IMG/VR virus record: IMGVR_UViG_3300031687_000007
Location: 3,826 to 67,825 of that record
Strand: one strand, 5' to 3'
Length of the DNA stretch: 64,000 bases
Origin: a virus
Shown in pieces: positions 3,030-46,000 of the stretch; within the stretch, counting starts at the first letter, position 1; every line of letters starts with the position of its first letter. The position numbers and the translations under genes are program-made. The notes under the pieces were generated by a model, which saw only the letters and a program-made list of their open reading frames with translations, was not told the origin of the DNA and ran no database searches.

Positions 3030-3062
3030 ACTAATATTATTTAATTATTAAGGTGTATTATT

Positions 3063-11086: not shown

Positions 11087-14000
11087 ATGTCTGAGCAAGA
11101 TCTTCTTAGCACCCCACTTAATTCGCCTAACCAAGAAACTCAGCTAGCAGACGTATCATTACAACCAGCGTCAGCTGTTGTGCCTTCGGCACCAGCTGCC
11201 ACTGTACCTATGGGCATTGATCAGAGTCTATATCAAGCAGCACCGGCTACCGGTATGCAAGACTTTGGTAGAACCAAATCAGAAAGTCTATCTATATCTT
11301 CAGACAACAAAGTTGAGCGCCTAGCTAATAGTACTAACCTAAAAAACCTTATATATAGAAAGGATGATGGTACGTCTTTTGATGTATCAAGCGTCTCCTC
11401 ATCTGAGCGAGATAGTGCTGCCGTCATGTCTGTGGATCAAGCACAGAAGATGTTAGGTGCTGGTGCACGTACTATTGGATCATTCATGGACAACCAATCA
11501 GTAGAAGATTGGGGCCAGTCAGTTGTAGATCAACAGATCATAGATCTAGAAGAAGGAGGCTATGAGCCTCTATCTGGTGGTATGAGTGTTCGTGAAATGT
11601 TTAAAGAACGTGGAGCGGGTAGTGCACTAGGTCGTGTATGGGAAATGATGCAAGAGAACCTTGCTACCTCTGGTGTCTCACTAGCAGGTGGAGCTGCTGC
11701 AGCCCTTACTGCACCATTTAGTGGTACCGCTGCTATTATGGTTCTAGGTGGAACTACATTAGCATCTGGTGCTATGGGTGTGGGTGAGTCCGCTCTGGAG
11801 ATGGAAGACAAGGGTGTTGAGATAAACGATGCTAAAGCTATAGGCACAGGTATATTGATTGGCCTACTAGACCGATTCGGTGCCGGCAAGGTTATACCTA
11901 AAAACCTTCTCACCCGGATGACAGGTGATGCCATTGTTAAGCGCCTGGTTGAGAAAGGCTTTGTTGATGCAGCTAAGGGAGTTGCTAAAACTATCCTAGG
12001 CAAGGCTGCATGGGAGTCGGGTACTGAGGTAGCTCAGGAAGCACTCATCATTAATACTGCTGCCTCACAGGGAGCTGAGTACACCAAAGACGAGATAATT
12101 GATCGCTTTATTGATGTGGCATTTGTTGCTGCAGGCATGGGTGGTACTACTGCTACTGTGTCTGGCACTGTTGAATATGGTAAAGCTGTTAGTACTAAGA
12201 TAGCTAGCACTGTCAGTGACACACTTGTGGATGTCCGAGAACGTGCTGAAGTAGCTGCTGTACAAATTGAAGAGATTGATAGGAGTAATTCTCCTACCCC
12301 TGTGGAAGGTGTGCCTCTTGATCCAACTACTGCAAAGACACCTGATTCTCCTACAGTAGCTCTTATAAGATTCTCTGCTGCTAATGATTATCTAAAAATA
12401 CCAGTAGGAGAGAGAACCACTGAAAACACTCAGGCCTACATGGATGAGTACAATAAGCATTTAGAAGCGGCTCAGACTTTCATAACTGAGCAGGAAGCAT
12501 TAGGTACGCCAGTACCAAAAGCACAAAGTGATTTCGTAGGTGACTCTTTCACAGGTACAGATCAAGTAGCTGAGGAATATACTCGCCTAGTAGAAGTGGA
12601 AGGTGCTACAGATAATGATGCTCTAAAGATCGCAGTAGACCTATTAGCCTCCAAAGCAGAGGGAATGACCACTGCGGAAGACAAGAAGACATTCATAGAA
12701 GACACCCTTGGATCCATGGATCTAAGTAACGTATCAAGAAAAGGGTCTCCTACGTCCGCTGAGTTGCAAGATGTTAAGAATAAGCTTGGCATCAAGGATG
12801 GTGAAAATACTAAACTAGATACATACATAGCTCTTCGTAAGTCCGTGGAGAGTGTGTCTGACCAAGTAATGTCAGGTGAAGAGTCTGACGGTAAGTTTAA
12901 AGGTCTTAAGTGGCATATAGCACAGGTTACTGAAGCAACTAAGCGTGGTAATTCTGATGAGGCAACCAGTAAGTTAGACTTCCTTAAGAAGTGGTCAGAT
13001 TACCAAGCATTTAAGACCACTAAGTTCCAAGAGATCCAGGCATACAATGCTGAGATCCAGGCAGGTAACTCACCAACTCTTCCAACTAAGCTAGGTGGTG
13101 TTACCTACTTAGGCAAGGCAATTGACAATTTCACAATAGATTTTGAAGCATTTGGAGTTGATAAGACAACAGAAGAAGGTAAGAAGGTATGGTTCTATAA
13201 TAAGACCAAAACACCTGCCCTAATTGCTACCATGGAGACTGACAGTGCTGCCATAGCAGACGTTCATGCTCAACTGGCCTCATTATATGCCCCAACTGTA
13301 GAAGTCCCTGTAGCGGCTCCTGTGAAGCCTAAAGAACAAGCACCTGTAACTGAAGTTCCTTCAATGGAAGATCAGGTAATAATTGACCAAACTGAGTCAC
13401 AGATCAGCAAGCTAGAGGCTAAGTTAGCCAAAAAGCACTCTAAAGAGGAAGGCAAGCTGTGGAACAAGACAAAGAAGCTCATGGAAGCACGTTTGGTTAA
13501 GATGGGAGTGGTTCCTGTAGTTGAAGAGGACTTCTTAACATTCTCTGCAGAAGAGTCCGCCCAAGTTCATGAGGATATTGCAGAAGATGCTGCACAAAGA
13601 AAGGTAGATAATCCAACCTTGGATCCAGAGCTAGCTTACAACACGCAGACCGGTTTATTTGAAGAAGCTACAGATGTACCTACCAACATGGTGGTTACTA
13701 ATGACAGCCCAGACTCTTCTATTAAACTTAGTGATTTCTTTGAGAATACAGGAAATGGTAGTACCACTGATGTACAGGGAGCTGTTACCCCTGACATAGC
13801 TGAGGACTCCCTAATAGGTAAGAGTTACTTGAAGACTGTTAGAAACTTCTTCAAGAATTATCCTAAGATTACCCACATTCTTAAATTAGATGACCGTCAG
13901 ACTAAAGTATTAGGAAGTGTTCGTGATCTATTACGAATCATGTATAAAAACATGCCTGATGCTATTGAGAGTTTGCGTGGCAATGACTACGCCTATTCTG

Positions 14001-17000
14001 TTAACGCTGTTGGTGCAGACAAGAAGCAGACATGGAAAGTACTACAGTTCCCAATGCTTCTATTAGCTAAAGGTGCCAAAGAGAGGGCTAACTCTGCTAA
14101 AGGACATAAGGGTACTATAAAAGCGTTGTTCGATACTAATGTACTGAACATAATCAATATTACTGGCCTTAACTGGGTCACTACTATGGGTCAGAGCACT
14201 TTATACAATACTTCTGAGGACATTCACAAGATTGCCTCTAGTGAAGGTACTGCTCGCAAGATGAGTGATGAGACCACACAAAAACTACACATAGCAGGTA
14301 CCTTATACGGTAACGTAGTAGAACAGTTGGGTAAGGCAGTGTTTAACCAGTTAGGAATCAAGGTTAAGCAAGATGCACTGGCAATACATGGAGATCGTAT
14401 GATTACGTCTCTAGGTATGGCAGCGGTAGAGTCGCTTATCGCCTCTGGTATGCTTGTTAAGACTCAAATACCAACTAAAGACATATACACACTTCAATCC
14501 GGTGACTCTCAGGTTACATTTATACGCATAGCTACTGAGAAGACAGACAGCAATCTTGTTTTGGGTCAACCAACTCCCCTAGTACAATCAGTTCTTGACC
14601 TTACTAGTGCTAAAAACGCTAGTGCATACACTACTCTGATTCAGAAGATATCAGGTACTGAGCCTAGAGCTAAGTTCCCTAGATTTGGCAATGATATTAA
14701 GAAGCTTAAGGCAGGTGCTACTTATAATAAGACATCACGTCCATTACCTAAGAAGGTAATTAGTGACGTAAATAGGATGAATAAGGTCGATTGGAGATTT
14801 AAACCAGACATGCTATACCTTCTTCAACCTGAGAATAGAGAAGAAGCTACTGAGTTCTTTAAGCAACTTCAGGGATTTGAGTATGCTATTGAAGATCGTC
14901 CTCTATACCTTCAGATGGGTGATGTAGGTCGCAATCTGGGTATTGTTAATGAAATTCAAGGTGTGTTCGACTTCTATGACATGTATGTTGCAGAAGGAAG
15001 TAATGGGCCCTTTCACTTTTCATACAACACAGGTGAGAATGGTCGTCACAACGTCAATGAGAGTGCCTTCAGTTACCAAGGCAGTAAGCTAGTTCGCCAT
15101 CTAATATTCGCTGATAAGTATGCTACAGGATCTAAAGATGGCTTTAGTGTAGAGGTTACAGCTGGACAAGGTGGTGACCACTTCCAGATGTTCCAATATG
15201 CAGTAGTTCAGGCATTAAGTAAGTCAGTAAAAATTGATCATGGTAAACATGACGAGATTGTTACTGAGTTCTATCGCATAGCTAATGATATGGACACACG
15301 AGAGAATGCAGCAGCTGTGTTTGCCGATGGCTATGGATCCTCTGTGACTGAGTATCTACAAGATAATGGCCTAGGCGCCCATGGTTTGGACGGCTTACAG
15401 GCATTAGGAAGCTACCTAAATACCAGTCCAATCCTGGATCAATCTAAAGATACTGCAGATAGTCGAGATAACTCTAAGACGTTCACTACCGACCTAGCTA
15501 TCGAGACTGACGCTATTACGAGTGGATTTATGCTTACCCTAATGAACTTCGGTGCGCTAGGTGATAAGAATATTAGTATGCTCTCTACTGGTGGTATTTT
15601 CTTAGCTGATAAAGAGACAGGTGAGTTCCACGAAAGTATTCCTAAATTCAGGGAGAAGACTGGTAACACTAAAGACGTGTACACCATGCTTATTGATCCA
15701 TGGAAATTAGCTGTAGATAAGTTGGTCGGTAAGCATAAAAGACTTTCTCCTATACTAGAATTAGTAGAAATGGATCGTAACACTGCTAAACCAATCATCA
15801 TGCAGGGTAGCTACATGGCTCAATATAAGAGTCTTGTTAATAACTTTATAAATGGCACTTCCGATGGGCAACTGGGTAAGCTATATGAGCGTATTCATGC
15901 TGCAGATAACGCAGGTAAAGTTAAAATATTCACTAACTTACTGGATTTGAAGACCCCTGGAATACAGAAAAGTAATCCTACATTATTTAAGACCCGTTTA
16001 GATTCATTAATGGGTCTGAAGCTTAATGAGAGCCTATTGCCATACCCCTTAGTTACTAAGTACGAGGAGGTCTTAAGCAAAGTATATGGTGAGACTCTTA
16101 CAGACACACTCGACAACATACTAACTATGCGTGACACGGCACAATCTGTTAACAAGATGGTCAACATGATGTCTTGGTACTACAGATGGCAAGTTAAGAA
16201 GGCAATAGATGCTGCTGGTGGCTACGCCAGTCTTACTCCTGCTAAGTTAACTAAGATCTATGAAGATCCTGCCTTAACAGCCCTACGCCCTTATCTGCCC
16301 ACACCTGACTCTGTGTTAAAGGAAGAGGGACTTGCAGCACTAGCCAATGAAACAGTACGTGATCATACGTCCACTGATAATGTTGTTAAAATTAGTGGTC
16401 TTACCAACAATGAGGATGGACGTAAGTCTGCATACACACGCTCAGTGGAGAAGCGCACAGCTAATGAAGCAGCCAGATCCATAGTAGTAACTGTTCAAAG
16501 TATTGATGATACTATAGTTCGTGCTGTCATGAGCAAGTACAACGCTATGTCTGCGTTTGACGCTGTGTACACGAGTATTGGTCAATCTGTTGGCGCCTCA
16601 CGTACGTACAACCAAAACGTTGCCTCAACTAGTGAAGGCTTCTCTATATTCGAGAACACATACAATAACTTCATGGAAGTTATGGCTCACACACAAGGTA
16701 GTGATAGATCTAACCTAGATGGCTTCATAAACTTCATGTCTGAAGATACTGAGGGCTTTAATTCTAAGAACTTCTCTGTAAGTACATTCTTACCTGAGAT
16801 GTCCGGTGTTAATATCAGAGAGTCTGATTCAATGGAGTTCTTGCGTGACAGTATAACTGACACAATAGCTGGCATGACGGAACAGAATGATGAAGTAGCT
16901 TCTAACCGTAAGGAGTTCTTTGAACGCTTACGTGTAGTGGATCACATGGGCATGCCTGGTACAGCCTTCAAAGTGAAACCCGGCGAAGATAGCCTTGGAT

Positions 17001-20000
17001 CAATTACCCCTGTTAATGATGATGAGTTCAGCTACACTAAAGCAGGTGATTTGATTGCCGGCAATGTAGAGAAGATATTTGATGGTATTAAAGATAATCG
17101 TACTAACTCTCCTGAGCATGTAGCAAAGCTTCGTGATGTACTTAATCGTATCGTATCTAAAGTAATTAAGACTACTGACAAGTACGAGCTACACATGCAG
17201 TCTAAAGGTGAGACCTCATATGGCCGTCAGAGAGACGGTAAGGTCTTCTTGAACATTGGTAAGGGATTAGCCTTAAACCTTGTTACACCGTCTGCACAAG
17301 AGTCCTATGTACATGAACTTGTACACGTCATTACTCGTGCTGCTTTAAGTGACCCAAAGGCTAACGCTATCGTACGTAAGCTTAGTGCCACTATGAGAGA
17401 TACTGTTACTCATCTAGAAGAGAAGTACAACGGTAAGCCTTGGAGAGTGTTTCTACAACGCGATGCTAAAGGTAACCCTGTGTATTCAGTCAATGTTAAG
17501 GAAGAGATCAAGGCTGCTAAAGCAGCTTATGACTATGTTTTTAACAATGCTCAGATGATAGAGACTCAATACATAGATACTGACTCAGGTAAGAAAGGTA
17601 CCACCAAGATTCGTGCAGGATTGCATGAGTTCCTAGCATACGCATTGACCAACGAGCACCTAAACAGCGCTCTAGTGGGCATGAAAGTATCTAAGTATCA
17701 AGAAGTTGGTTCTCAGGATACTATCTTCCAGAAACTATTAGCTATCTTAGAGAATGTTATGGCCTGGGCTAAAGGTCTTATAGAGAAAGCTCAGAAGGCA
17801 ACCCCAGCTGGTAACAATGCTGAACTTATTGAGCAGATGGTAGAAGAGCTTACTCATGTAAATGATAAGTTTAGATTCCGTACTCAGAAAGCAGTTGTTG
17901 CGATGACTGCAGCTAACAAAAAGGTAGTTGATGCTATAACTGAGAAGATGCTTAAGCCATTAGCAGAGAAGACTCTTTCTGCTAGAGATCATGCGATATT
18001 GGAGCGTAAGTTAGGTAAGGCATACGCATTACTATTTGTAGGATATATCAACCCAGTATCTCGTATAGAAAGTCGAACCAAGATGGACATAGTTCGTAAG
18101 TCTATGCAGGCATCCAAACGTAACTTTATAACTGAGCTGTATCGTGAGATCACAGGTAATGTGACACCTCATCAACGTATCCTTGAAAAGATGTTAATGG
18201 ATGCAAAGAAGAATTTAGAGTCACAACGCGATGATGCTATAAGTGCTATTGCCATTAACATATCACGTGGATATATTGAAGGAGCTGGTGCACTGTCTAC
18301 GTTTGAAGATGAGTCACACACAAGAGTGTTGATAGAGACTAATATTTCTTCTCTTATTAAAGATTGGACTAAAGTTAATATTCCTGCACTTGCTAGTATC
18401 ATCTCAGACGATGCTACCAGAGCTAAGGCTATTGTTGATGTACGTAAAAAGCTTAATGCATATGGCAGATTAGGTGATTACTACATCGGTATGGCTAACA
18501 GCCTTGGATCAATCATGGCAACACAAAAGGCCACAGTAGATGGTTCCTTGATGAACGCTGCTCTGATAGCCCGTGCTGACGACCTAAAAGGTGTTCCTGG
18601 TATTAGAATGCCTGAGGTAATGAAAGATGCTGAAGCCCTCATAAATGAATTAGCTACCCTTACAGCCCTTGAATATAACACCCAAGATGCTAGACAGGCT
18701 GTGGCTAATGTTATGCTACGAGAGCATGCGAATAATTCAGAAAGGAATGCTGCAATCAACACATTGACTCAGATTGATGAGTTCAATAAGCAGTCTTTGG
18801 CTCGTAACTTTGATGGTAATAATATTCAGCAGTCTGCAGGCTACTCTAAAGATATCTACAATCCGGATATTAGTATCAGAGTGGATACTGTAGAGATGGA
18901 GGCCGAATATAAGAAGCAAGGTTATGTTATGGATCCAGGTATTATACCTACTGATCCTGCCGATACAGACTCTCCTGCTACCATGAGAATGTACGTTAAT
19001 AAGTCAGGTGGGCATGGTATTAGACAAAAGTTCATCATGTCTGTTACTAACACCAACATGTCAGGACAGAGTATAACCAAGAGAGCTAGTGAGAGTGGGG
19101 ATAAGGCTGCCTTTGCAAAAGCTAAGAGATTGGTAAGAAATGTACGTGCACAGAATAAGCTTGAAGCATTGAAGCTACTAGGTAATCCTGATTATGTGAG
19201 CAGTAAGCCTAACATCATGATCCCTGTAACTGATCAGCTTGGTAAGGTAATGGACTTCCGCTATACAATGGAGAAGTCTAAGAGAGCCCGTGTATTTGAA
19301 CAGAAAGCTGGTATGACAGCTGTATTGAGCCATATGTATGGTGGTATCGTAGATAAAGAAGAGACTCCTCGTATTAATAACAAGGTAATTGAAGAGCTGC
19401 ACCTACAGTATCGTGAAAAAGGTATGAAAGGTAACAGAGACTTCGTAGAGGTGTCTTTAAACGCTAAGACTGAAGAGCTTAGAGAACTTTATATGATACT
19501 TCCAGACAGCACCAAGAGGTTCATAAAGTCACACACCGGTTCTGATAAAGTTATGATCCAGGCTGAGTTTATAGACATAGTATTTGGTCGCAAAAAGGTA
19601 CAGTTACCTGGAGGCGACAAGATGCAAGTAGCCACTAATGCATGGACACAGATGATTGCTGCAGCCAAGAAGAACATTGTAATAAAGTGGCCTGCAACTT
19701 TATCTATGAACGTATTGTCTAACACTATGTTAGGTATTCTTTCTGGAGTACCACCTGAGTATATGGTTAAGATGCAGGCAGAAGGTGCCATTAAGCTTAA
19801 TAACTATGTGGAAGATGGTAAGCAGCTTAGAGATCTTAACCTTCAGTTAATGACTGCTAAGAAGACTGGTAAAAGTACTAAGAAAATATTGGCTGATATA
19901 TCTACGGTTGAGAGTAGTATAAATACATCACCAATATTGCCTCTTATTAAAGCAGGTGTATTCCAAACTATCGTGGAAGACATTGATGTACTGAACAATC

Positions 20001-20560
20001 CTTATTCGTATGCTTCTAAGATAAGTGAGTTCTTTGATGGTATTCAAGGTAAGGGAGGTAAGGTAGGTGGGTCTGTCGCAGGTGCACGTCAAGCTTATCG
20101 TTATGCTTACATGAGTGATGACACTGCAGTATTTAAGGCCTTAATGAAGACCACGCAGTTTAGTGACTTTGCTGGTAGGTATGCAATCTACCAATACATG
20201 ACTGTGCATGAGAGTGTGGAAGAAAGTGCTGCATTGGAACATGTTATGGATGGTTTCGTTAACTACGAAACACCTACTAACAAGTACATCCAGTTTGCCA
20301 ACGACTATGGCTTACAGATGTTTACTAAGTACGGTTTCAGAATACTACGTGCTATCTCTGCTTTGCTCCATGGCAAACCGTTGAACGCTATAGGCTTCTT
20401 AGTACTTAATGATGTACTTGCTGCAGGTCTAGCATCACCATTTGATGCCACTCCTTTTGATAACTATGCTAGTCCAGTGACTAACATAATATCTGCAACT
20501 ACACAGAGTGGTACTAAGGCAGCAATGGACACTGCCTCACTACTGGGTGTGATTGACTAG
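11087..20560 (+). CDS. Virion-encapsidated RNA polymerase (N4 gp50-like vRNAP)
   Basis: 3157 aa with T7-family motifs: A (ETDAITSG), B (RNTAKPIIMQGSY) and C (AFDAV), plus NGR motif and HELVH zincin-like motif. No Cys seen. Last gene of the late block. Confidence 0.95.
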   Translation: MSEQDLLSTPLNSPNQETQLADVSLQPASAVVPSAPAATVPMGIDQSLYQAAPATGMQDFGRTKSESLSISSDNKVERLANSTNLKNLIYRKDDGTSFDVSSVSSSERDSAAVMSVDQAQKMLGAGARTIGSFMDNQSVEDWGQSVVDQQIIDLEEGGYEPLSGGMSVREMFKERGAGSALGRVWEMMQENLATSGVSLAGGAAAALTAPFSGTAAIMVLGGTTLASGAMGVGESALEMEDKGVEINDAKAIGTGILIGLLDRFGAGKVIPKNLLTRMTGDAIVKRLVEKGFVDAAKGVAKTILGKAAWESGTEVAQEALIINTAASQGAEYTKDEIIDRFIDVAFVAAGMGGTTATVSGTVEYGKAVSTKIASTVSDTLVDVRERAEVAAVQIEEIDRSNSPTPVEGVPLDPTTAKTPDSPTVALIRFSAANDYLKIPVGERTTENTQAYMDEYNKHLEAAQTFITEQEALGTPVPKAQSDFVGDSFTGTDQVAEEYTRLVEVEGATDNDALKIAVDLLASKAEGMTTAEDKKTFIEDTLGSMDLSNVSRKGSPTSAELQDVKNKLGIKDGENTKLDTYIALRKSVESVSDQVMSGEESDGKFKGLKWHIAQVTEATKRGNSDEATSKLDFLKKWSDYQAFKTTKFQEIQAYNAEIQAGNSPTLPTKLGGVTYLGKAIDNFTIDFEAFGVDKTTEEGKKVWFYNKTKTPALIATMETDSAAIADVHAQLASLYAPTVEVPVAAPVKPKEQAPVTEVPSMEDQVIIDQTESQISKLEAKLAKKHSKEEGKLWNKTKKLMEARLVKMGVVPVVEEDFLTFSAEESAQVHEDIAEDAAQRKVDNPTLDPELAYNTQTGLFEEATDVPTNMVVTNDSPDSSIKLSDFFENTGNGSTTDVQGAVTPDIAEDSLIGKSYLKTVRNFFKNYPKITHILKLDDRQTKVLGSVRDLLRIMYKNMPDAIESLRGNDYAYSVNAVGADKKQTWKVLQFPMLLLAKGAKERANSAKGHKGTIKALFDTNVLNIINITGLNWVTTMGQSTLYNTSEDIHKIASSEGTARKMSDETTQKLHIAGTLYGNVVEQLGKAVFNQLGIKVKQDALAIHGDRMITSLGMAAVESLIASGMLVKTQIPTKDIYTLQSGDSQVTFIRIATEKTDSNLVLGQPTPLVQSVLDLTSAKNASAYTTLIQKISGTEPRAKFPRFGNDIKKLKAGATYNKTSRPLPKKVISDVNRMNKVDWRFKPDMLYLLQPENREEATEFFKQLQGFEYAIEDRPLYLQMGDVGRNLGIVNEIQGVFDFYDMYVAEGSNGPFHFSYNTGENGRHNVNESAFSYQGSKLVRHLIFADKYATGSKDGFSVEVTAGQGGDHFQMFQYAVVQALSKSVKIDHGKHDEIVTEFYRIANDMDTRENAAAVFADGYGSSVTEYLQDNGLGAHGLDGLQALGSYLNTSPILDQSKDTADSRDNSKTFTTDLAIETDAITSGFMLTLMNFGALGDKNISMLSTGGIFLADKETGEFHESIPKFREKTGNTKDVYTMLIDPWKLAVDKLVGKHKRLSPILELVEMDRNTAKPIIMQGSYMAQYKSLVNNFINGTSDGQLGKLYERIHAADNAGKVKIFTNLLDLKTPGIQKSNPTLFKTRLDSLMGLKLNESLLPYPLVTKYEEVLSKVYGETLTDTLDNILTMRDTAQSVNKMVNMMSWYYRWQVKKAIDAAGGYASLTPAKLTKIYEDPALTALRPYLPTPDSVLKEEGLAALANETVRDHTSTDNVVKISGLTNNEDGRKSAYTRSVEKRTANEAARSIVVTVQSIDDTIVRAVMSKYNAMSAFDAVYTSIGQSVGASRTYNQNVASTSEGFSIFENTYNNFMEVMAHTQGSDRSNLDGFINFMSEDTEGFNSKNFSVSTFLPEMSGVNIRESDSMEFLRDSITDTIAGMTEQNDEVASNRKEFFERLRVVDHMGMPGTAFKVKPGEDSLGSITPVNDDEFSYTKAGDLIAGNVEKIFDGIKDNRTNSPEHVAKLRDVLNRIVSKVIKTTDKYELHMQSKGETSYGRQRDGKVFLNIGKGLALNLVTPSAQESYVHELVHVITRAALSDPKANAIVRKLSATMRDTVTHLEEKYNGKPWRVFLQRDAKGNPVYSVNVKEEIKAAKAAYDYVFNNAQMIETQYIDTDSGKKGTTKIRAGLHEFLAYALTNEHLNSALVGMKVSKYQEVGSQDTIFQKLLAILENVMAWAKGLIEKAQKATPAGNNAELIEQMVEELTHVNDKFRFRTQKAVVAMTAANKKVVDAITEKMLKPLAEKTLSARDHAILERKLGKAYALLFVGYINPVSRIESRTKMDIVRKSMQASKRNFITELYREITGNVTPHQRILEKMLMDAKKNLESQRDDAISAIAINISRGYIEGAGALSTFEDESHTRVLIETNISSLIKDWTKVNIPALASIISDDATRAKAIVDVRKKLNAYGRLGDYYIGMANSLGSIMATQKATVDGSLMNAALIARADDLKGVPGIRMPEVMKDAEALINELATLTALEYNTQDARQAVANVMLREHANNSERNAAINTLTQIDEFNKQSLARNFDGNNIQQSAGYSKDIYNPDISIRVDTVEMEAEYKKQGYVMDPGIIPTDPADTDSPATMRMYVNKSGGHGIRQKFIMSVTNTNMSGQSITKRASESGDKAAFAKAKRLVRNVRAQNKLEALKLLGNPDYVSSKPNIMIPVTDQLGKVMDFRYTMEKSKRARVFEQKAGMTAVLSHMYGGIVDKEETPRINNKVIEELHLQYREKGMKGNRDFVEVSLNAKTEELRELYMILPDSTKRFIKSHTGSDKVMIQAEFIDIVFGRKKVQLPGGDKMQVATNAWTQMIAAAKKNIVIKWPATLSMNVLSNTMLGILSGVPPEYMVKMQAEGAIKLNNYVEDGKQLRDLNLQLMTAKKTGKSTKKILADISTVESSINTSPILPLIKAGVFQTIVEDIDVLNNPYSYASKISEFFDGIQGKGGKVGGSVAGARQAYRYAYMSDDTAVFKALMKTTQFSDFAGRYAIYQYMTVHESVEESAALEHVMDGFVNYETPTNKYIQFANDYGLQMFTKYGFRILRAISALLHGKPLNAIGFLVLNDVLAAGLASPFDATPFDNYASPVTNIISATTQSGTKAAMDTASLLGVID

Positions 20561-26719: not shown

Positions 26720-26742
26720 CATAGAAATGTGCGGAGCACATT
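26720..26742 (-). promoter_or_regulatory. vRNAP-type hairpin promoter candidate (template = + strand)
   Basis: AATGTGC-GGA-GCACATT; same C-GGA-G triloop as the N4 P2 promoter. The +1 base fits less well than at the other three sites. Confidence 0.65.
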
Positions 26743-26764: not shown

Positions 26765-26907
26765 TAAGGTACCCCCTCTGTCACCAGCTGCGGGGGCCAC
26801 AGCTCTATGGGGAAAAACACTAACCCTGGCTTATTGATTTTTTAACCCTAAGCGCTAGGCCCAGTAGGTACGCTCATCAACGAGAGCGCAACTACTGTAT
26901 CACCTTT
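26765..26907 (-). ncRNA. Candidate structured RNA or 3' UTR element downstream of the DNA polymerase
   Basis: GC-rich intergenic stretch with several hairpins containing G-U pairs on the - strand. Confidence 0.35.
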
Positions 26908-28021
26908 ATAGTGCTGCATCTATGATTTCCTGAGCTGTAGCATTATTAGGTATTGTAATTTTACTACCCATACTTGGATAATAGATTTCTAAGTTTGCAC
27001 CTAGCTTAACAATGTCATGCTTAAGTTCCGGTAACTCCTGCCAAGACATGCTATCTACTAGGTTTGTGTTTAACCAAGCTATTAGATCTGGATCAGTTTT
27101 TACCATGTAATACTGTGCATCATGTATATGTGCAATAGGTAAAATACTATATCTATAAGCAGAGGTATGAACCTTGCCCATAAATTCATTAGCTGCACGG
27201 TTATTAAGTAGTCCGTATGACTGACCTAATGCGTTGCCGGCAGTACGTCCTTCAGCCTGTGCTTCAAAGGGCGTATGACGTGTGTTTAAGATCGTTTGAG
27301 CTAGAACAGGTGTTCTTAGGCGTAGACCGAATGCACCTGTTACATAGCCATTCTTAGTAGCCTCTATGAGCTTAACTTGTACCCATTCATCGGATACCTT
27401 GTACAGCTCGTGATAGTTATCAACAATCTCACGTGCTTCCTCTTTAGAGAAACCTAGTGTGTTGACTAAGGTATGCTCAGTTCCCTGATAGGTAAGAGCA
27501 AACGTAGGGCCTTTGGATCGTTGCCTAAGTGCCTCATACATCGTTTCAATACTATTGATCGAGGCAACTGTGTCCACGATATCAGGCATCTGCTTACCAA
27601 AGTATGCGAATGCTCTTAAACAGTGACCGTCATAGCCATCTGCATATACTTTAATCTTGTTTGGATCTTTAGTTGTAAGAGCTGAAATCTTGTCTTCAAG
27701 ACTAGAGAAGTCAGCACCCACTATGACCCACCCAGGAGGAGCCTGAAAGCATCCTTTAATTGCCTTAGCAAACTTACTCCCAGTAGATGGAAGCTGTTGT
27801 AGGTTGATCTTAGAGGAGCTCAGGCGTCCTGATTTGGTACCACCCAAATGAAAGTTACCATGAAGGAACCATTTACCCATCTTGGGTATGGTCTTGAATA
27901 AGAAAGCAGGGACGAATGCAGTTAGTAACTTACTAACCTCATTTATCTCCATCAGATACTTAAGGACTCTTGCTACCTTGATAGCATCATCCCTATTCTT
28001 AATCTTAGATATTCCACTCAT
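26906..28021 (-). CDS. DNA polymerase family A, C-terminal polymerase part
   Basis: GTKSGRLSSSKINLQQLP; motif A ADFSSLE; motif B RQRSKGPTFALTY; motif C IHDA. Confidence 0.92.
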   Translation of the reverse strand: MSGISKIKNRDDAIKVARVLKYLMEINEVSKLLTAFVPAFLFKTIPKMGKWFLHGNFHLGGTKSGRLSSSKINLQQLPSTGSKFAKAIKGCFQAPPGWVIVGADFSSLEDKISALTTKDPNKIKVYADGYDGHCLRAFAYFGKQMPDIVDTVASINSIETMYEALRQRSKGPTFALTYQGTEHTLVNTLGFSKEEAREIVDNYHELYKVSDEWVQVKLIEATKNGYVTGAFGLRLRTPVLAQTILNTRHTPFEAQAEGRTAGNALGQSYGLLNNRAANEFMGKVHTSAYRYSILPIAHIHDAQYYMVKTDPDLIAWLNTNLVDSMSWQELPELKHDIVKLGANLEIYYPSMGSKITIPNNATAQEIIDAAL

Positions 28022-28379
28022 AGTTCAAAGTTTCCTGTGCATCTTTGATGTAGTTAGATAGAGCTATCTCTGGGAAGTCTTCTAATGAAATGCTAGTACG
28101 TAGTACAATGTTAGATGTGAGATGGTCTACTAAATGACCTGGGGTATACGTCATACCCTTCATCTCTACTTTAAGCTGATCCAGAAGTAGCACTGTATGC
28201 ATCCTGTTAAATGGAGCAGACTCTGACTCATCAAGTACTAAATTAATATCACCAGTAATTGTGTTGCTCTTAAGATTATAGTTATCAAGTGACCAACTGA
28301 TACTCTGCGCCCCAGTAGAGAGCTTCGATAGACCTAACCTAAACTGCTCCCCTAGGTCGCTTAACTTGAATTTATCCAT
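28005..28379 (-). CDS. Hypothetical protein inserted in the split DNA polymerase locus
   Basis: 124 aa, AAAGGAG RBS, overlaps both neighbours. Confidence 0.65.
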   Translation of the reverse strand: MDKFKLSDLGEQFRLGLSKLSTGAQSISWSLDNYNLKSNTITGDINLVLDESESAPFNRMHTVLLLDQLKVEMKGMTYTPGHLVDHLTSNIVLRTSISLEDFPEIALSNYIKDAQETLNYEWNI

Positions 28380-28774
28380 AATATACTCCTTTTAGGGAAC
28401 TTTGGGTTACGCCATGAATGTATTAACACTGGTGGTTTCCCAGTGAGTAGTTGCCTTAGTTGAATATCAGGGTAGTTTTTTATCTCTACCTTTAATGGTA
28501 GATCTACGGTGTACTTAGTACTGTGTGCTCGGCGCCATCTATCAATACTGATGATATCCATCTTACTTAATACAATGCCCATAGCCTTCTCAAACTTGGG
28601 CCTATCGTGCCCATCAGTTAACTTGATCCTAAGTTCACCATACATAATGGTTGGTATCCTAGAATACCTAACACATAGATTTATATGGATCACCTTAATA
28701 TGGTCACGGAGTATCGGAGTACGTTTAACCACATCAACGATTCGGTCGAATAGTAATTCTTTAGCAGTGCTCAC
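28361..28774 (-). CDS. Hypothetical protein inserted in the split DNA polymerase locus
   Basis: 137 aa, GTGA-coupled to the DNAP N-part stop, GAGGAG RBS. Confidence 0.65.
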   Translation of the reverse strand: MSTAKELLFDRIVDVVKRTPILRDHIKVIHINLCVRYSRIPTIMYGELRIKLTDGHDRPKFEKAMGIVLSKMDIISIDRWRRAHSTKYTVDLPLKVEIKNYPDIQLRQLLTGKPPVLIHSWRNPKFPKRSILWINSS

Positions 28775-30267
28775 AACTCCTCCTCATCAATGTCATATTG
28801 ATTAAGTAACAACTTATACAGCTTCTTAATGGTTTTCTTCCCAGTAGCTGGTTGCCCTGTGTCTGTAGTATCTAACACTGGAAGCCCTAGGAAGCCATAT
28901 AAGAGACTGCTAAGCTGAAGAGGACTATTGGTATTCAATGACTGAACAAACTCGTCCAGAGGCTTAAACTTCTTCTTTAGAAGGGTATTCTTAAGAATGA
29001 ATGCCTTCTTCTGCTCAAGCCACAGGTAGTCTTTAACTAACTCTGTTCTGTGAAGGTTCCTAGTACTAGTAGACATAATCTTTTTGAGATCTTCCTCCAC
29101 TACTTCAATGGAAGGCATATCCATAGGCATACCTGTAAGTTCCATCTGAGTGATGTTCTTAAGGGATGGTATGAATATGTTACGGTAGATCTCTAACTGA
29201 TCGTCCTCACACATCTTGTCGTAATACTTATTGAATACATACCAAGTACTAAGGCAATCAACCAAGTTGTAGTTCATAAGATCTACATTTTGGATCAAGT
29301 TAATATCATGGATATCTTCCTGAGCATAGTTGCCTGCATACTCAAACGCATTATGTTTAAGTGATAGTTTATTCTCAGCTGTGTTATTAGTAGCTAGGTA
29401 TGTGATGATCTTAGTGTCATCTATGTCCCTGAACATAACGTCCAGTGCATCTACCATAGCAACGAAGTCAGTACTCACCTCCCTCATAAACACGTCGTAT
29501 ATAATACAACGAATATCAAATGAGGCATTGTGGTACTTAAGGTTACCTTTGTACTGGGTGAAGAAAGCGTAAAGTAGATCAACTAGTTTCCACTTATCCT
29601 CATCTGTACGTGTAATCATATGAGATACGTTTATAGTAACGCCTTCATGCTGATTCCATGCAAATGCAATAGTACCAATACGAGACTCACCAATAGATAG
29701 GCCAAAGGTCTCTACGTCACAAGTGAGTGAGGGATACTGGTGTAAAGATTCCAGCTGGAATTTAATATCAGCTAGATCATCCACATAAGTAGATGAGTGA
29801 ATTATACCTTGACCAATTATCTGGTAGTTACCACCTAGGTCAGCTGATATAGCTTCAAGACTTATATCTATCTTCTCTTGTAGAGCTGGGTTATAGAATA
29901 GCCCTTGATAGTTAGCAGTAAGGAATACATTCATGTGCTCAAATCCTTTAACCATACAGGGCATTTTATAGCTGTAGTGTGGCTCAGACTTAGATTGTTT
30001 AGTTGCTGCTTTGAAGTATGTAGAGTCGGCTATTATTACAGTAATAATGCCCTCTGCATCCAGATCAGCTAAAAGTGCAGGTAGTACTTCCTTAATCATC
30101 TTAGCAGGCGCCTTACCAGCAGAGTTGAACTCTAATGGCATTACTTTTAAACATGCTTGTAGGGGCTCTGCATAGTGCTTCATTACACCATCGTATTTAT
30201 AGGCAGATTCTTTGATCAACAGGGCAGCATCCGGGAACTTGTCCGGATCAGTGTAAAAGTGTTTCAT
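28771..30267 (-). CDS. DNA polymerase family A, N-terminal part (3'-5' exonuclease and start of thumb)
   Basis: ExoI CDVETFG, ExoII HNASFD, ExoIII YNLVD, QMELTGMP and TDTGQPATG. Confidence 0.9.
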   Translation of the reverse strand: MKHFYTDPDKFPDAALLIKESAYKYDGVMKHYAEPLQACLKVMPLEFNSAGKAPAKMIKEVLPALLADLDAEGIITVIIADSTYFKAATKQSKSEPHYSYKMPCMVKGFEHMNVFLTANYQGLFYNPALQEKIDISLEAISADLGGNYQIIGQGIIHSSTYVDDLADIKFQLESLHQYPSLTCDVETFGLSIGESRIGTIAFAWNQHEGVTINVSHMITRTDEDKWKLVDLLYAFFTQYKGNLKYHNASFDIRCIIYDVFMREVSTDFVAMVDALDVMFRDIDDTKIITYLATNNTAENKLSLKHNAFEYAGNYAQEDIHDINLIQNVDLMNYNLVDCLSTWYVFNKYYDKMCEDDQLEIYRNIFIPSLKNITQMELTGMPMDMPSIEVVEEDLKKIMSTSTRNLHRTELVKDYLWLEQKKAFILKNTLLKKKFKPLDEFVQSLNTNSPLQLSSLLYGFLGLPVLDTTDTGQPATGKKTIKKLYKLLLNQYDIDEEEL

Positions 30268-32955: not shown

Positions 32956-32977
32956 CAAAAGAGAGCGGAGCTCTCTT
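32956..32977 (-). promoter_or_regulatory. vRNAP-type hairpin promoter (template = + strand)
   Basis: CAAAA-GAGAGC-GGA-GCTCTC, near-identical to N4 P2 as I recall it (CCAAAA-GAAGC-GGA-GCTTC). Confidence 0.85.
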
Positions 32978-36808: not shown

Positions 36809-36827
36809 CAAAACGTGCGGAGCGCGT
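36809..36827 (-). promoter_or_regulatory. vRNAP-type hairpin promoter (template = + strand)
   Basis: C-AAAA-CGTGC-GGA-GCGCG with one T-G pair. +1 C lies 11 nt from the loop centre, as in N4. Confidence 0.8.
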
Positions 36828-36829
36828 AT

Positions 36830-36857
36830 AAAAAAAGACACCCTTAGGTGTCTCTTG
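36830..36857 (-). terminator. Intrinsic terminator
   Basis: AGACACC-TAAG-GGTGTCT followed by TTTTTT on the - strand, directly upstream of the hairpin promoter. Confidence 0.85.
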
Positions 36858-41304: not shown

Positions 41305-41329
41305 AAAAAAAGACTCCAATTAAGGAGTC
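41305..41329 (-). terminator. Intrinsic terminator
   Basis: GACTCC-TTAATT-GGAGTC followed by TTTTTTT on the - strand. Confidence 0.85.
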
Positions 41330-41395
41330 GTAGGGTTTGAAATGGACAATTACTAGTAAAATTACTAGTCTTTGAAATGGATGATTTAGTTCACC
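41305..41395 (-). ncRNA. Candidate ~90-nt small RNA transcribed by vRNAP
   Basis: Bounded by a hairpin promoter (+1 at 41395) and a terminator. No ORF. Two UCCAUUUCAAA copies flank a hairpin. Confidence 0.55.
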
Positions 41396-41414
41396 AAAGG
41401 GCACGGAGTGCCCT
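41394..41414 (-). promoter_or_regulatory. vRNAP-type hairpin promoter (template = + strand)
   Basis: CC-AA-AGGGCAC-GGA-GTGCCCT. +1 C lies 11 nt from the loop centre, giving a GG RNA start. Confidence 0.8.
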
Positions 41415-41421
41415 CCCTAAT

Positions 41422-42405
41422 CTATGATAGTGCGTACTCTGATTTACGGATCAATGATGCTAGATCATCAGAATCCTTTGTTATGGATATATTTTGACCA
41501 GTTACATCCTTTACAAATATCTCCATAGCATTCATCTCAGACAAGGTAGCAAGTATCTCTCGATAATTCCTACGTACCGTATTCATATGGTTCGGTGATG
41601 CCCAGAATGAGTCATGAATGTGAGCTATTTGGATCCCCTGCTTATTGCCCATACGAATCATCATACGTGCTACCCACCCATCTAAACTATGAATGAAGTT
41701 AGGACATAATGGAGTGTACTTACCACTAGGCTGGTTATTAGTATGACGGTACGTAAAGGTAGTATGATCAAGCTCATCTACCTCAATACGAGTATCAATA
41801 GCCTCAGTAACTCGTACCTTAGCTATGTGACCATCTGGAGTACTCCACTTATGGAACAGTGCACCTGCATCCCAACAATCGTTGATTAATTCCTTCACAT
41901 CTTCTGCACCACTAAAGGATGAGAACAGTACCTTATCGAAAGCATCCTTCTGAGCTTGTGTAAGCGTCTCCTGGACACTCTTGTTGTAATAGTGCGTCAT
42001 TATAGGCTTCTTAACATCACCTCTCACAACAGCATCTGTTGGATCTAACAGCATGTTCATGCCATCAGCTACCTTAGTGTATACGTCTTCCCTGTTACCC
42101 GTATCAATAAGGTTAACCGCAGCTGCAGTCTTCTTACATCCTGACAGGCATGCCATCACCTGTAGACCAGACGCAGTAGCATCTAATGACATTACATATC
42201 CTGTGGGAATACCCTTCAATGCATCTTTATGTGCATTAAGAGCCTTCACAAACAAGAACTTGTTATCTGCTTCAGGCGCCATGTCGTACAAGTCCTTCTC
42301 ATTACAATCAAACCAGAATATCCTCTGCTGCCAAGTAAGCTTGTCCATACCAAACTCATTAGCTGCTGCTATCTTGATGTACTCTAAACCTGTAAACGTT
42401 TCCAT
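41422..42405 (-). CDS. RNA polymerase II subunit 2 (N4 gp16-like)
   Basis: LDATASGLQ, RGDVKKPIMTHYY, NFIHSLDG and IHDSF. Confidence 0.92.
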   Translation of the reverse strand: METFTGLEYIKIAAANEFGMDKLTWQQRIFWFDCNEKDLYDMAPEADNKFLFVKALNAHKDALKGIPTGYVMSLDATASGLQVMACLSGCKKTAAAVNLIDTGNREDVYTKVADGMNMLLDPTDAVVRGDVKKPIMTHYYNKSVQETLTQAQKDAFDKVLFSSFSGAEDVKELINDCWDAGALFHKWSTPDGHIAKVRVTEAIDTRIEVDELDHTTFTYRHTNNQPSGKYTPLCPNFIHSLDGWVARMMIRMGNKQGIQIAHIHDSFWASPNHMNTVRRNYREILATLSEMNAMEIFVKDVTGQNISITKDSDDLASLIRKSEYALS

Positions 42406-42414
42406 AGTGTTCCC

Positions 42415-42597
42415 CTAGTTAATGTTTAGTTCATCTAACTTATTTGCCAGCTCTCTAAGTAGCCAACTATGTAGCTCATAAATACCTGACTCAAACACAT
42501 AGTAGTCACCATGGTTATCTATAGTGCCTATGTGCCCTGAGCCCATATACACTTCAATCTCATTAGGATTTACCACACGATACGTCAATTCATTCAT
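42415..42597 (-). CDS. Hypothetical protein between the RNAP II subunits
   Basis: 60 aa; LRELANKLDELN; ATGA coupling. Confidence 0.6.
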   Translation of the reverse strand: MNELTYRVVNPNEIEVYMGSGHIGTIDNHGDYYVFESGIYELHSWLLRELANKLDELNIN

Positions 42598-43460
42598 AGT
42601 GTTATAACCTCTTGTTTTGTAAAGGATAATAGGGCTTTCTTATAGTCAGATGACTGAAAGTTTATGTGGTAACCTGATGAGTAAGACCTACCTCGCTTAT
42701 CAAACTTCCACATGAAGTAGAATGGTATGTTCGTATACTCATGATACACACGCTTACTGGTTATACTCATGATCTTAAACTGAAGAGCTTTCTTAGGGGT
42801 ATCCAGCTCCTTATTAGGTTGCTCTTTCATAGCCATAATCATGGGATCTAGCGTCCACTCAATAGACTGCAGTATGTTCAAACAGTCCAAAGACTGACTA
42901 TGGTTGTGATGGTTCTCCTTACCAAGAATACAGCTCTCTTCCTGAGTATGAAGACCGCCACCTTTGTTCATAGTCCACATCTTAGGCTTCAATACCAATG
43001 GTGGTACATACATGAACTCCTCGATCTTACTCAACACCTCAGTACTAGGTATTAGGTATGGCTCAATCGCTAGCGTCCCTGTAGGGTTCTCTGAGTAGTC
43101 ATGAGCTAACAACTCATACAACTTACCCTCACATACTGCGATGATCTCAGCAGCTGTTTTGACCCCATCTAAGAGCTTTTCAGCCAGTAGAGGAGCAAGT
43201 GAACCGCACAATCCTTGAATAGGAGTGATTTCACCATTACACCGCATGATAGATGCAGCTAAATGGTAAGCAATGTCTAAAGATTCTACCCGTATCTCCT
43301 TAATACGTAGGTTCTTAGACTCATAGCTATACTGTTGATTCTTATACGTTTCTATTGCAAATACTAACCCTACAATACTCTCTAAATCTGTGTCATCTTT
43401 TAACGATGACATTAGACCTCTACGTGAGTATGTAGTCTCCAACAATTCTTGCTTGTTCAT
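42594..43460 (-). CDS. RNA polymerase II subunit 1 (N4 gp15-like)
   Basis: YVPPLVLKP and FDKRGRSYSSGYHINFQS. Confidence 0.92.
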   Translation of the reverse strand: MNKQELLETTYSRRGLMSSLKDDTDLESIVGLVFAIETYKNQQYSYESKNLRIKEIRVESLDIAYHLAASIMRCNGEITPIQGLCGSLAPLLAEKLLDGVKTAAEIIAVCEGKLYELLAHDYSENPTGTLAIEPYLIPSTEVLSKIEEFMYVPPLVLKPKMWTMNKGGGLHTQEESCILGKENHHNHSQSLDCLNILQSIEWTLDPMIMAMKEQPNKELDTPKKALQFKIMSITSKRVYHEYTNIPFYFMWKFDKRGRSYSSGYHINFQSSDYKKALLSFTKQEVITL

Positions 43461-45075: not shown

Positions 45076-45421
45076 AATATGTTCCGTATTAATAAAGAAT
45101 TAAGACACGAAGTTGTGTCATTTATATAAGAAGAAAGGTTCGCTTGACCTAACTGTTAGTTAAGTACTCTTGCCCTATCTTCATACATAGAGTAAGAAGG
45201 GTTAGTATGTGTGAGGGTTTGATTTGAGTGAGGATGGTGGTTGTGGTTAGTATTAGAGTGGGTGTGAAATGTAGGAGGAGAGAGGTAGAGTAAGATATAT
45301 GGAAGTTTATAAGAGGTAAACCTAATTAAACCAGTGGTATAGCCCGTAGCCAGTAGCTTTCCTTGCCCTATCTTGTTGGTTGTTTGGTGTGATTTGTTGG
45401 TGTGATTTCTTAGCTTGTGGT

Positions 45422-45450
45422 AAAAATATACCCCACCCGTTAGGGTGAGG
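45422..45450 (-). terminator. Intrinsic terminator
   Basis: CCUCACCC-UAAC-GGGUGGGG-UAUAUUUUU. Confidence 0.65.
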
Positions 45451-45457
45451 ATTAGGC

Positions 45458-45689: not shown

Positions 45690-46000
45690 AATTCCTTAAG
45701 GTTAATTTAATTGTGGTTGGTACCGTTCATTGAATAAGAAAGCTTTTGCTGTTGGTGTGAAAGGCTTAACGTCCCTTGGTAGTCTTATAGGGGGGGGGTC
45801 TTTGTTTGTTCTAGTCTCTGCTTCTTAAGTACTGTGTCAGCCTCAACATATAATATTTCTGAAAATACCTATATTAGTTTTTCTGTATATACGGGGTACT
45901 TGTAAAGAGAGACGTACTTATGTACTATCCTCTTATACTACTCCTGTTAAGGATATATAGGTGAGTAAGGCGAAGCGAAGCGAGAGCCTTACGAACCGTG
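45690..46000. other. Divergent noncoding region, probable genome terminus
   Basis: Early genes run left and terminase runs right; N4-like genome ends map to this junction. Contains a G9 run and hairpins. Confidence 0.55.
45900..45928 (+). promoter_or_regulatory. Putative sigma70-type late promoter
   Basis: TTGTAA-N17-TACTAT. Confidence 0.55.

Follow-up and report, generated by a model that had tools for sequence, protein, structure and literature searches.

The 64,000-nucleotide (nt) stretch of DNA analyzed here (the window) corresponds to bases 3826–67825 of a 67,825-bp viral record, IMGVR_UViG_3300031687_000007, whose completeness is estimated at 92%. On its minus strand, between the RNAP2 gene, which encodes the large subunit of a heterodimeric T7-like RNA polymerase (RNAPII), and the first gene of the next operon, lies a short non-coding cassette composed of a GC-rich hairpin, an AT-rich spacer containing two copies of a motif, and an intrinsic terminator. 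An earlier note on this DNA had described the cassette as a dedicated promoter for the virion RNA polymerase (vRNAP), of the kind known from coliphage N4, and a terminator enclosing an immediate-early small RNA. We find that the elements are genuine and conserved in related phages, and we favor, with a probability of roughly 40%, the reading that the cassette is a promoter-proximal terminated leader, the short product of which would be a small RNA and the read-through of which would feed the next operon. In the direction of predicted transcription, the features are:

41422–42405, minus strand: RNAP2 gene (phrog_2051 'RNA polymerase', E = 9.6e-99)
41414–41398, minus strand: candidate promoter hairpin AGGGCAC-tcc-GTGCCCT, with a 7-bp stem and a 3-nt loop (TCC), 8 nt past the RNAP2 stop codon
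G 41395, minus strand: predicted transcription start according to the N4 geometry, 11 nt from the loop centre (41406), with GG at 41395–41394
G 41392, minus strand: alternative predicted start according to the geometry of phage LUZ7 (13–14-nt spacing)
41381–41371 and 41346–41336, minus strand: two exact copies of the 11-mer TCCATTTCAAA, 35 nt apart
41366–41381, minus strand: repeat R1, TCCATTTCAAAGACTA, position-weight matrix (PWM) score 15.2
41369–41352, minus strand: internal hairpin ACTAGTA-ATTT-TACTAGT, −6.7 kcal/mol as RNA
41331–41346, minus strand: repeat R2, TCCATTTCAAACCCTA, 35 nt after R1 and abutting the terminator stem
41329–41312, minus strand: intrinsic terminator GACTCC-TTAATT-GGAGTC, −10.5 kcal/mol, with seven Ts at 41311–41305
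41294–41288, minus strand: ribosome-binding site (RBS) GAGGTGA of the next gene
From 41281, minus strand: next gene (ATG 41281–41279), coding for a 107-aa membrane-like protein with no PHROG match

On the template (plus) strand, the first hairpin presents a GGA loop closed by a C:G pair and folds at −7.1 kcal/mol as DNA; on the minus strand, it is followed by ttGGtgaac, the T run after the stem being only three residues long. The terminator, which the earlier note had placed about 65 nt downstream of the start, lies some 66 nt after it and combines a 6-pair stem (four G:C pairs), a 6-nt loop and seven Ts directly after the stem. The two exact 11-nt copies at 35-nt spacing were likewise found as described, and a PWM scan of the minus strand of the window disclosed no copy of the repeat beyond R1 and R2. 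The spacer contains 31.8% G+C, versus 41.8% for the window, and the predicted 91-nt RNA folds at −21.6 kcal/mol (z = −4.39), a stability reached by none of 200 shuffled sequences. No Rfam 15 family was matched at its gathering score; the only two matches, both below threshold and at chance level, scored 20.6 bits where 91 are required and 19 where 50 are required. The claim that the RNA contains no open reading frame (ORF) needs to be qualified: a 38-codon frame runs across the element from a GTG at 41404 to 41288 (40 stop-free codons in the window), but it shrinks to 13–29 stop-free codons in the 13 relatives described below and, since it is not kept, it is not a gene. We thus ruled out a small protein-coding ORF across the cassette, and the stretch is non-coding as stated.

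The upstream hairpin was compared with those present in the left 12 kb of the N4 genome. There, hairpins precede gp1 (GTTGC-ttc-GCAAC, followed by ttatGG), gp2 (AAGAAGC-tcc-GCTTCTT, followed by ttGG; P2, position 557) and gp15, the RNAP1 gene (AAGCTGC-tcc-GCAGCTT, followed by ttGG; P3, position 4546), at positions that agree with the placing of P1–P3 in the literature, and all three display a GG at +11/+12 from the loop centre. According to published accounts of these promoters, N4 vRNAP recognizes a GC-rich heptamer centred at −11 with a 5–7-bp stem, a 3-nt loop, a central template purine and a G at −8 (PMC4496689, PMC3715699), the template-strand G at −8 being an essential contact (PMC3715699) and P2 and P3 being established vRNAP promoters (PMC4496689). 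The window hairpin resembles P2 and P3 in (i) its 7-bp stem, its TCC loop (template GGA, with a central purine) and the closing C:G pair; (ii) the ttGG found at +9 to +12 from the loop centre, in identical register and providing a GG start; and (iii) the order of elements on the template strand, which reads CCAAA(A)-stem-GGA-stem in both N4 and the window. Its heptamer is ACTCCGT, with the central template G at 41406, versus GCTCCGC in P2 and P3; the 70-kb N4 genome contains the latter at only three places, P2 and P3 included, so the motif is specific. Stem and loop size, a heptamer with a G at −11 and a GG start 11 nt from the loop centre are thus all present, and the assignment of the hairpin to a real promoter class with N4-type geometry, as the note had it with a +1 at 41395, appears sound as to type when judged against N4's own P2 and P3. 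The contexts differ: the N4 promoters lie upstream of gp2 and RNAP1 and lead straight into genes, whereas the window hairpin sits after RNAP2 and runs into a terminator, and N4 has only a plain terminator after its RNAP2 gene (gp16).

The exact start site is less firmly placed. In the relatives, the first purine after the hairpin is at +13/+14, not +11, which matches the spacing in LUZ7, an N4-like phage whose middle promoters are described as hairpins rich in G and C, with a stem of 6 bp or more and a 3–4-nt loop, the G starts lying 13–15 nt from the hairpin (PMC9163698); the start may therefore be 41392 rather than 41395. We infer from these two geometries that transcription starts within 41392–41395.

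Conservation was assessed on RNAP2-relative loci collected through alignment-based searches, 74 viral and 38 metagenomic (a single-protein search found none). Twenty of these loci form a close clade, with RNAP2 proteins 69–74% identical, and provide 13 distinct spacer versions, i.e. 14 with that of the window. All 13 metagenomic relatives display the same order of hairpin, repeat, weak hairpin, repeat, terminator, T run and RBS. From the first repeat to the T run, the module is 75–77 nt long (77 alignment columns) and has no internal indel in the 14 versions, so the 35-nt repeat spacing is kept in all of them; upstream of it, the 22-nt segment that follows the promoter is absent from five of the 14, and one version has acquired a 45-nt insertion after the promoter. 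The core of the repeat has the clade consensus TTTYAAAsnCTA, of which the exact 11-mers of the window are one instance. Over 73–75 columns, the relatives match the window module at 48–63 positions, and the adjacent RNAP2 codons are 46–59% identical at third positions and 74–80% at first positions; the module is more conserved than the neighbouring third codon positions. The persistence of the repeats in relatives, on the absence of which the earlier note would have given up its proposal, was thus established by alignment in the 13 relatives. Note that the 45-nt insertion (L105, 4010–4075), located downstream of the promoter and ahead of the first repeat, contains a direct repeat of its own, namely two copies of GGACACTTCT.

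Both outer hairpins covary. The promoter stem is paired in 100% of the cells of the 14-version alignment, two pairs being changed on both sides, and the terminator stem in 84.5%, four of its six pairs having both partners altered in at least one relative; these levels were reached by none of 500 shuffles, and controls slid along the alignment gave 40–56%. G:U pairs are present in both hairpins. The 7-bp hairpin that the note had seen between the repeats does exist in the window but is weakly conserved: 79.6% of the cells are paired in the 14 versions, and one pair, which occurs as G:C, U:A and A:U, is nevertheless unpaired in six of the 14. Consistently, RNAalifold predicted the promoter hairpin and the terminator but not the internal hairpin.

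The distribution of the module is narrow. A strict module pattern retrieved exactly six viral contigs from IMG/VR, all known relatives; a covariance model of the module, run on 64 sources (469 kb), recognized the copy in the window and none in the 63 others, and gave no significant match in N4 or in the Alteromonas phage discussed below (best E for the latter, 2–5); a distant blastn search with the element returned two irrelevant short matches only. A scan of viral contigs for the exact double 11-mer gave 26 loci, all of them unrelated coding DNA for acidic repeats, which we set aside. On these alignments and searches, the module is single-copy, clade-specific and under purifying selection. 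Two further ideas were dropped: concerted evolution of the two repeats, the signal for which (11.36 identities of 14 within a genome versus 10.79 across genomes, permutation p ~0.01, not corrected for relatedness) is weak and confounded by relatedness, and a dimeric operator at a perfect 8-2-8 palindrome, which the relatives do not keep. Conservation also extends to the RBS behind the cassette, which is followed by one of two unrelated genes. One codes for the membrane-like protein and the other for a protein starting with MASxYPGKKC; the loci fall into two groups (L028, L104, L106, L112 and L116 versus the window, L107, L108, L115 and L118), and the mosaic junction is located directly after the RBS.

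Taken in isolation, the window sequence would have carried the case only part of the way beyond chance. The 11-mer pair is unremarkable on the window alone, since 36 of 100 shuffles yield at least two matches; the window harbors seven families of local direct repeats, and its 36–50-kb region contains 11 terminator-like sites where 7.2 are expected. What makes the element real is its conservation in 13 distinct relatives.

The cassette hairpin is one of four in this genome. It lies 4.6 kb (6.8%) from the left end, as inferred from the gene layout only, after the early genes, and three sister hairpins of the P2/P3 type, all with the heptamer GCTCCGC and all in intergenic spacers directly ahead of operons, follow at 13.5%, 19.2% and 28.4% from the same inferred end:

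36813–36827, minus strand: hairpin ahead of an operon with an ATPase and an HNH-like gene, fully paired only on the template strand (T:G pair) and preceded by a terminator at 36836–36853
32959–32977, minus strand: hairpin ahead of an operon with phrog_11908 and a DNA polymerase gene
26726–26742, minus strand: hairpin ahead of an operon with exonuclease, primase and SSB genes

The series is kept in relatives L153, L154, L156 and L158. Its distribution bears on which polymerase reads the cassette hairpin. The attribution to vRNAP, and with it the immediate-early timing of the RNA, is unproven: in this phage and its near relatives, hairpins of the class are missing ahead of the RNAP genes and head four operons of the type transcribed as 'middle' genes in N4. 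The hairpin may instead be read by the phage-made RNAPII, as a middle-class promoter, in which case the RNA would not be immediate-early, and we put this at slightly less than an even chance. In favor of RNAPII, both the phage and its close relatives have the first hairpin of the class right where the RNAPII genes stop; none was found upstream of the RNAP genes, where 3–12 kb were examined; the operons headed by such hairpins carry the genes for ATPase, DNA polymerase, exonuclease, primase and SSB, all of which belong to the middle class in N4; the replication block yielded no promoter of any other class; and the LUZ7 middle promoters described above are themselves hairpins of this build (PMC9163698). 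In favor of vRNAP, both the sequence and the register match those of P2 and P3, which are established vRNAP promoters (PMC4496689), and in L057 an identical hairpin also stands ahead of the RNAP gene, whose first transcription cannot be the work of RNAPII. Transcription by vRNAP is marked by a need for gyrase and SSB and by resistance to rifampicin and chloramphenicol. Altogether, the choice between RNAPII and vRNAP at the cassette hairpin appears near even.

A different hairpin stands at the start of the early block (45967–45990, minus strand). It is conserved, has a 14-nt loop with two overlapping copies of GCTTCGC, the heptamer of N4 P1, and its outer stem shows covariation (AAGGC/GCCTT in both the window and G001, GACAGC/GCTGTC in G002); it may be an early promoter or a terminal element.

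We propose that the cassette is a self-contained transcription unit placed where the early genes, those for RNA polymerase, give way to the replication-type genes. Its promoter, of the N4 P2/P3 type and for a single-subunit polymerase, would be a DNA hairpin (GGA triloop, 7-bp stem) that the template strand extrudes, and transcription from G 41395 (or 41392) would proceed through an untranslated AU-rich leader, with two copies of a 12–16-nt motif and a hairpin after each, to the intrinsic terminator and its U7 tail. Most transcripts would end there, giving an RNA of about 88–91 nt (about 70 nt in the relatives that lack the first 22 nt), and the read-through fraction would supply the next operon, which spans 41281 to ~36874 on the minus strand; the same terminator would close the RNAP1–RNAP2 message. 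The unit would thus act like a promoter-proximal attenuator with a small RNA as its terminated product, and the motif-plus-hairpin modules would be likely binding sites of a protein, be it a factor of the phage or an RNA chaperone of the host, which would control read-through or make use of the RNA. Two observations point in this direction. On the one hand, no other promoter of the class exists between 41305 and 36830, so read-through probably serves the next operon, which makes it doubtful that the promoter is 'dedicated' to a small RNA as the earlier note had put it. On the other hand, the element order seen at 36.8 kb in the same phage, terminator then promoter, is reversed at the cassette in all 14 versions; kept there with a conserved spacer of fixed length, the reversed order looks deliberate. 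Partial termination would not be out of keeping with what is reported for LUZ7, the terminators of which are leaky and stage-dependent, more than 60% of the sites having a termination efficiency below 50% (PMC9163698).

Several observations weigh against this proposal. The template base at −8, which is a G in the 13 relatives and in the other three hairpins of the window, is an A (41403, plus strand) in the window copy; because the −8G is lacking, we call the hairpin N4-type rather than a strict member of the class; the rule is N4's own and the vRNAP of this phage is distant. In the relatives, the promoter hairpin is followed by T4–T6 and so resembles an ordinary terminator as well, and in L115, L118 and L030 the stem of the second terminator is degenerate. 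RNAalifold gave no conserved alternative (antiterminator) fold, so any control would act through a protein and not through a riboswitch-like fold, and no candidate protein that would bind the repeats was identified. Finally, unrecognised AT-rich promoters could serve the next operon instead; the minimal promoter of N4 RNAPII is an AT-rich element spanning −7 to +2 (PMC4496689).

Four of the alternatives give the conserved stretch a different role. That the cassette encodes a stand-alone, trans-acting small RNA (sRNA) of about 70–90 nt, the repeats of which sequester some protein (for instance an Hfq-like chaperone, a nuclease or a defence factor) or base-pair with other RNAs while read-through is incidental, strikes us as doubtful. 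This is the view of the earlier note, and the role of sponge, decoy or antitoxin mimic that it envisaged would be conjectural. The unit is indeed bracketed, since the promoter hairpin and T4–T6 of the relatives can stop upstream transcripts and the second terminator is then the unit's own; the repeats are conserved in both sequence and spacing, and are slightly more alike within a genome than across genomes, with the reservation about relatedness given above; and a promoter–terminator pair recurs in another lineage (L056, L059). The AU-rich stretch before each hairpin and the U7–U10 tail also recall Hfq-binding sRNAs, which have their own promoter and terminator, a U- or AU-rich stretch before the terminal hairpin and a long U tail. 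However, the RNA lacks a known target or partner, the 22 nt at its 5' end are dispensable, since five of the 14 versions do without them, the internal hairpin is not well preserved, the module occurs in a single clade, and the cassette always has, at most ~25 nt behind it, an RBS and a gene in need of a promoter. A bolder version, in which the injected vRNAP makes an abundant ~70–90-nt RNA within seconds of DNA entry, before any phage protein, and its two AU-rich sites capture a host protein (an RNA chaperone, an RNase or a defence nuclease), seems unlikely to us. We consider it about equally improbable that no transcription starts here at all, the GC hairpin being the first of tandem terminators, or of 3'-end stabilisers, of the RNAP1–RNAP2 message and the conserved stretch being its 3' untranslated region. 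The relatives' hairpin has the look of a textbook terminator, with a 6–8-bp GC stem and T4–T6, in four loci of other lineages (L054, L064, L124 and L125) it caps a longer stem with a T run behind it, and the plain terminator after gp16 in N4 shows what this position holds there. Yet the C-TCC-G loop and closing pair are invariant although the stems differ, a constraint that N4 promoters impose and terminators do not; the window copy has only T3 after its stem; three other operons of the phage are headed by hairpins of the class; and in L038, L044 and L050 the hairpin comes after a true terminator, without a T run and before a gene.

The two remaining alternatives deal with the AT-rich repeats as DNA. 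Transcription from the hairpin promoter might open the repeat stretch as a replication origin or make a primer RNA, as in T7, which we regard as very unlikely. Such a role would suit a single copy per genome, a position directly after a T7-like RNAP gene, the low G+C content of the spacer and direct repeats at fixed spacing, and the N4 transcription machineries have been implicated in DNA replication (PMC4496689). Against it, a U7-tailed terminator releases the RNA and an rU:dA end is a poor primer, the G:U pairs in both hairpins point to sense-strand RNA structure and not to a double-stranded DNA site, the cassette is absent from N4, and the GC skew turns only with gene direction (~20.5 kb and 45 kb), not at 41.3 kb. 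Since the skew follows gene direction only, we dropped it as an origin marker. Least probable of all is that the repeats are tandem AT-rich promoters of the N4 RNAPII kind. The short AT-rich minimal promoter reported for N4 (PMC4496689) invites the comparison; in the versions lacking the 22-nt segment the first repeat falls on the start region of the hairpin promoter, and N4 spacers contain a loosely similar motif, AACTATCTA, two of the three copies of which are intergenic. We reject this explanation because the repeat occurs nowhere else outside coding sequence: it has no other copy on the coding strand of the early/middle block, every extra PWM match in the relatives lies inside a long ORF, and 45 distant loci show no enrichment after RNAP2 (two of 16 sense matches versus 28 antisense). 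Moreover, transcription starting at R2 would meet the terminator at once. The repeat was accordingly discarded as a general promoter motif, and AACTATCTA was dropped as a homologue of it, its copies being too few to judge.

The genome around the cassette has the N4 layout. Late-type genes occupy the plus strand, and a minus-strand block running from ~45.7 kb down to 20.7 kb starts with small ORFs, followed by RNAP1 and RNAP2. Features in this wider region are:

11087–20560, plus strand: ORF of 3157 aa, comparable to the N4 vRNAP gene by size and position, and by these two alone
42594–43460, minus strand: RNAP1 gene, matching the N4-like RNA polymerase family

In tblastn searches, RNAP2 matched 'RNA polymerase 2' of Schitoviridae; the closest cultured phage by this protein, Alteromonas phage vB_AemP_PT15-A5 (OP481051), is only 38.6% identical, so the phage represents an uncultured branch of the family. 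A search of cultured phages for near-identity to the window gave no match.

Other peculiarities of the minus strand were noted in passing. The DNA polymerase is split: the ORFs at 28771–30267 and 26906–28021 match consecutive parts of one profile, and two small ORFs (28005–28774) lie between the halves. Toward the start of the block, a 382-nt non-coding spacer (45076–45457), C/A-rich on the coding strand, contains GATAGGGCAAG twice and begins with a terminator-like hairpin (45431–45450). Further out, a run of nine Cs (~45790–45799) resembles the one located 30–40 nt from the left end of N4, and beside it stands the motif AAGGGACGTTAA (45765–45776), the reverse complement of which is found in two relatives.

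For transcription by an injected polymerase, and for hairpin promoters, the model is provided by N4-like phages, and the passage from early to middle transcription is unclear outside N4. The cassette sits exactly at the early/middle junction in a widespread marine clade and is small enough to be tested in vitro. If it is a terminated leader, it would provide a case of attenuation control for single-subunit polymerases in a phage; if the RNA acts in trans, it would be a new kind of early phage effector; and if it is made by the virion polymerase to capture a host protein, it would be a first non-coding effector dedicated to a virion-borne RNA polymerase, shielded from its neighbours by the promoter hairpin, itself terminator-like, and by the true terminator at the opposite end. 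The presence of P2/P3-type hairpins ahead of all four replication operons, and of none before the RNAP genes, bears in addition on which polymerase uses hairpin promoters in schitoviruses other than N4.

Hairpins of the C-TCC-G type are common after RNAP2: one lies within 260 nt of the gene in 40 of the 68 distinct post-RNAP2 regions. Their surroundings vary. In L052, L053 and L057, the hairpin overlaps the stop codon and leads into a gene, an arrangement to be set beside that of L038, L044 and L050 mentioned above; in L056 and L059, the same-class hairpin is followed at once by a terminator; and in L054, L064, L124 and L125, where the TCC hairpin tips a longer stem, the structure may be a combined terminator–promoter, the transcript starting inside the 3' arm and so escaping termination. 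In L057, an identical hairpin (GTGGTC-tcc-GACCAC) occurs at 863, 2240 and 3995, that is, before an earlier ORF, upstream of a fused RNAP gene and at the stop codon of the latter. The fusion itself, in L057/L058, joins RNAP1 and RNAP2 in one 573-aa ORF (2275–3996).

The closest cultured relative, Alteromonas phage vB_AemP_PT15-A5, has the same layout: its RNAP2 stop codon is followed by a GC hairpin (GCCACC-TTCG-GGTGGC), an AT-rich non-coding stretch of about 100 nt that contains TTTTAAAGATA, a terminator with the loop TTAAT and a T run, and the next gene. The likeness is in architecture only, the hairpin loop being 4 nt long (TTCG). LUZ7 shares the hairpin middle promoters, and short non-coding transcripts are reported for it, but its sRNA candidates are late and map between orf69 and orf70, not after RNAPII (PMC9163698). 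Full-text literature searches found no small RNA described at the early/middle junction of N4-like phages, only these late-region candidates, in agreement with the earlier note, which knew of no equivalent there.

Farther afield, the T7 primary origin comprises promoters 1.1A and 1.1B and an AT-rich region just after gene 1, and thus offers the same succession of a phage RNA-polymerase gene, one or more promoters directly after it and an AT-rich stretch; it differs in that it is not known to have an intrinsic terminator, and the repeats described here are confined to one clade. A parallel to the terminated leader that we favor is provided by the pR'–tR' leader of phage lambda ('6S RNA') and by StxS of Shiga phages, in which a promoter is followed by a close terminator and an operon, so that a short transcript is made constitutively and read-through feeds the genes. 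These units rely on the multisubunit RNA polymerase of the host and the antiterminator Q, whereas the predicted promoter of the present cassette is a hairpin for a T7-like polymerase. The layout is otherwise the same, with a promoter, a terminator and then an operon that has no other same-class hairpin between 41305 and 36830, and in StxS the terminated leader has a second role as an sRNA.

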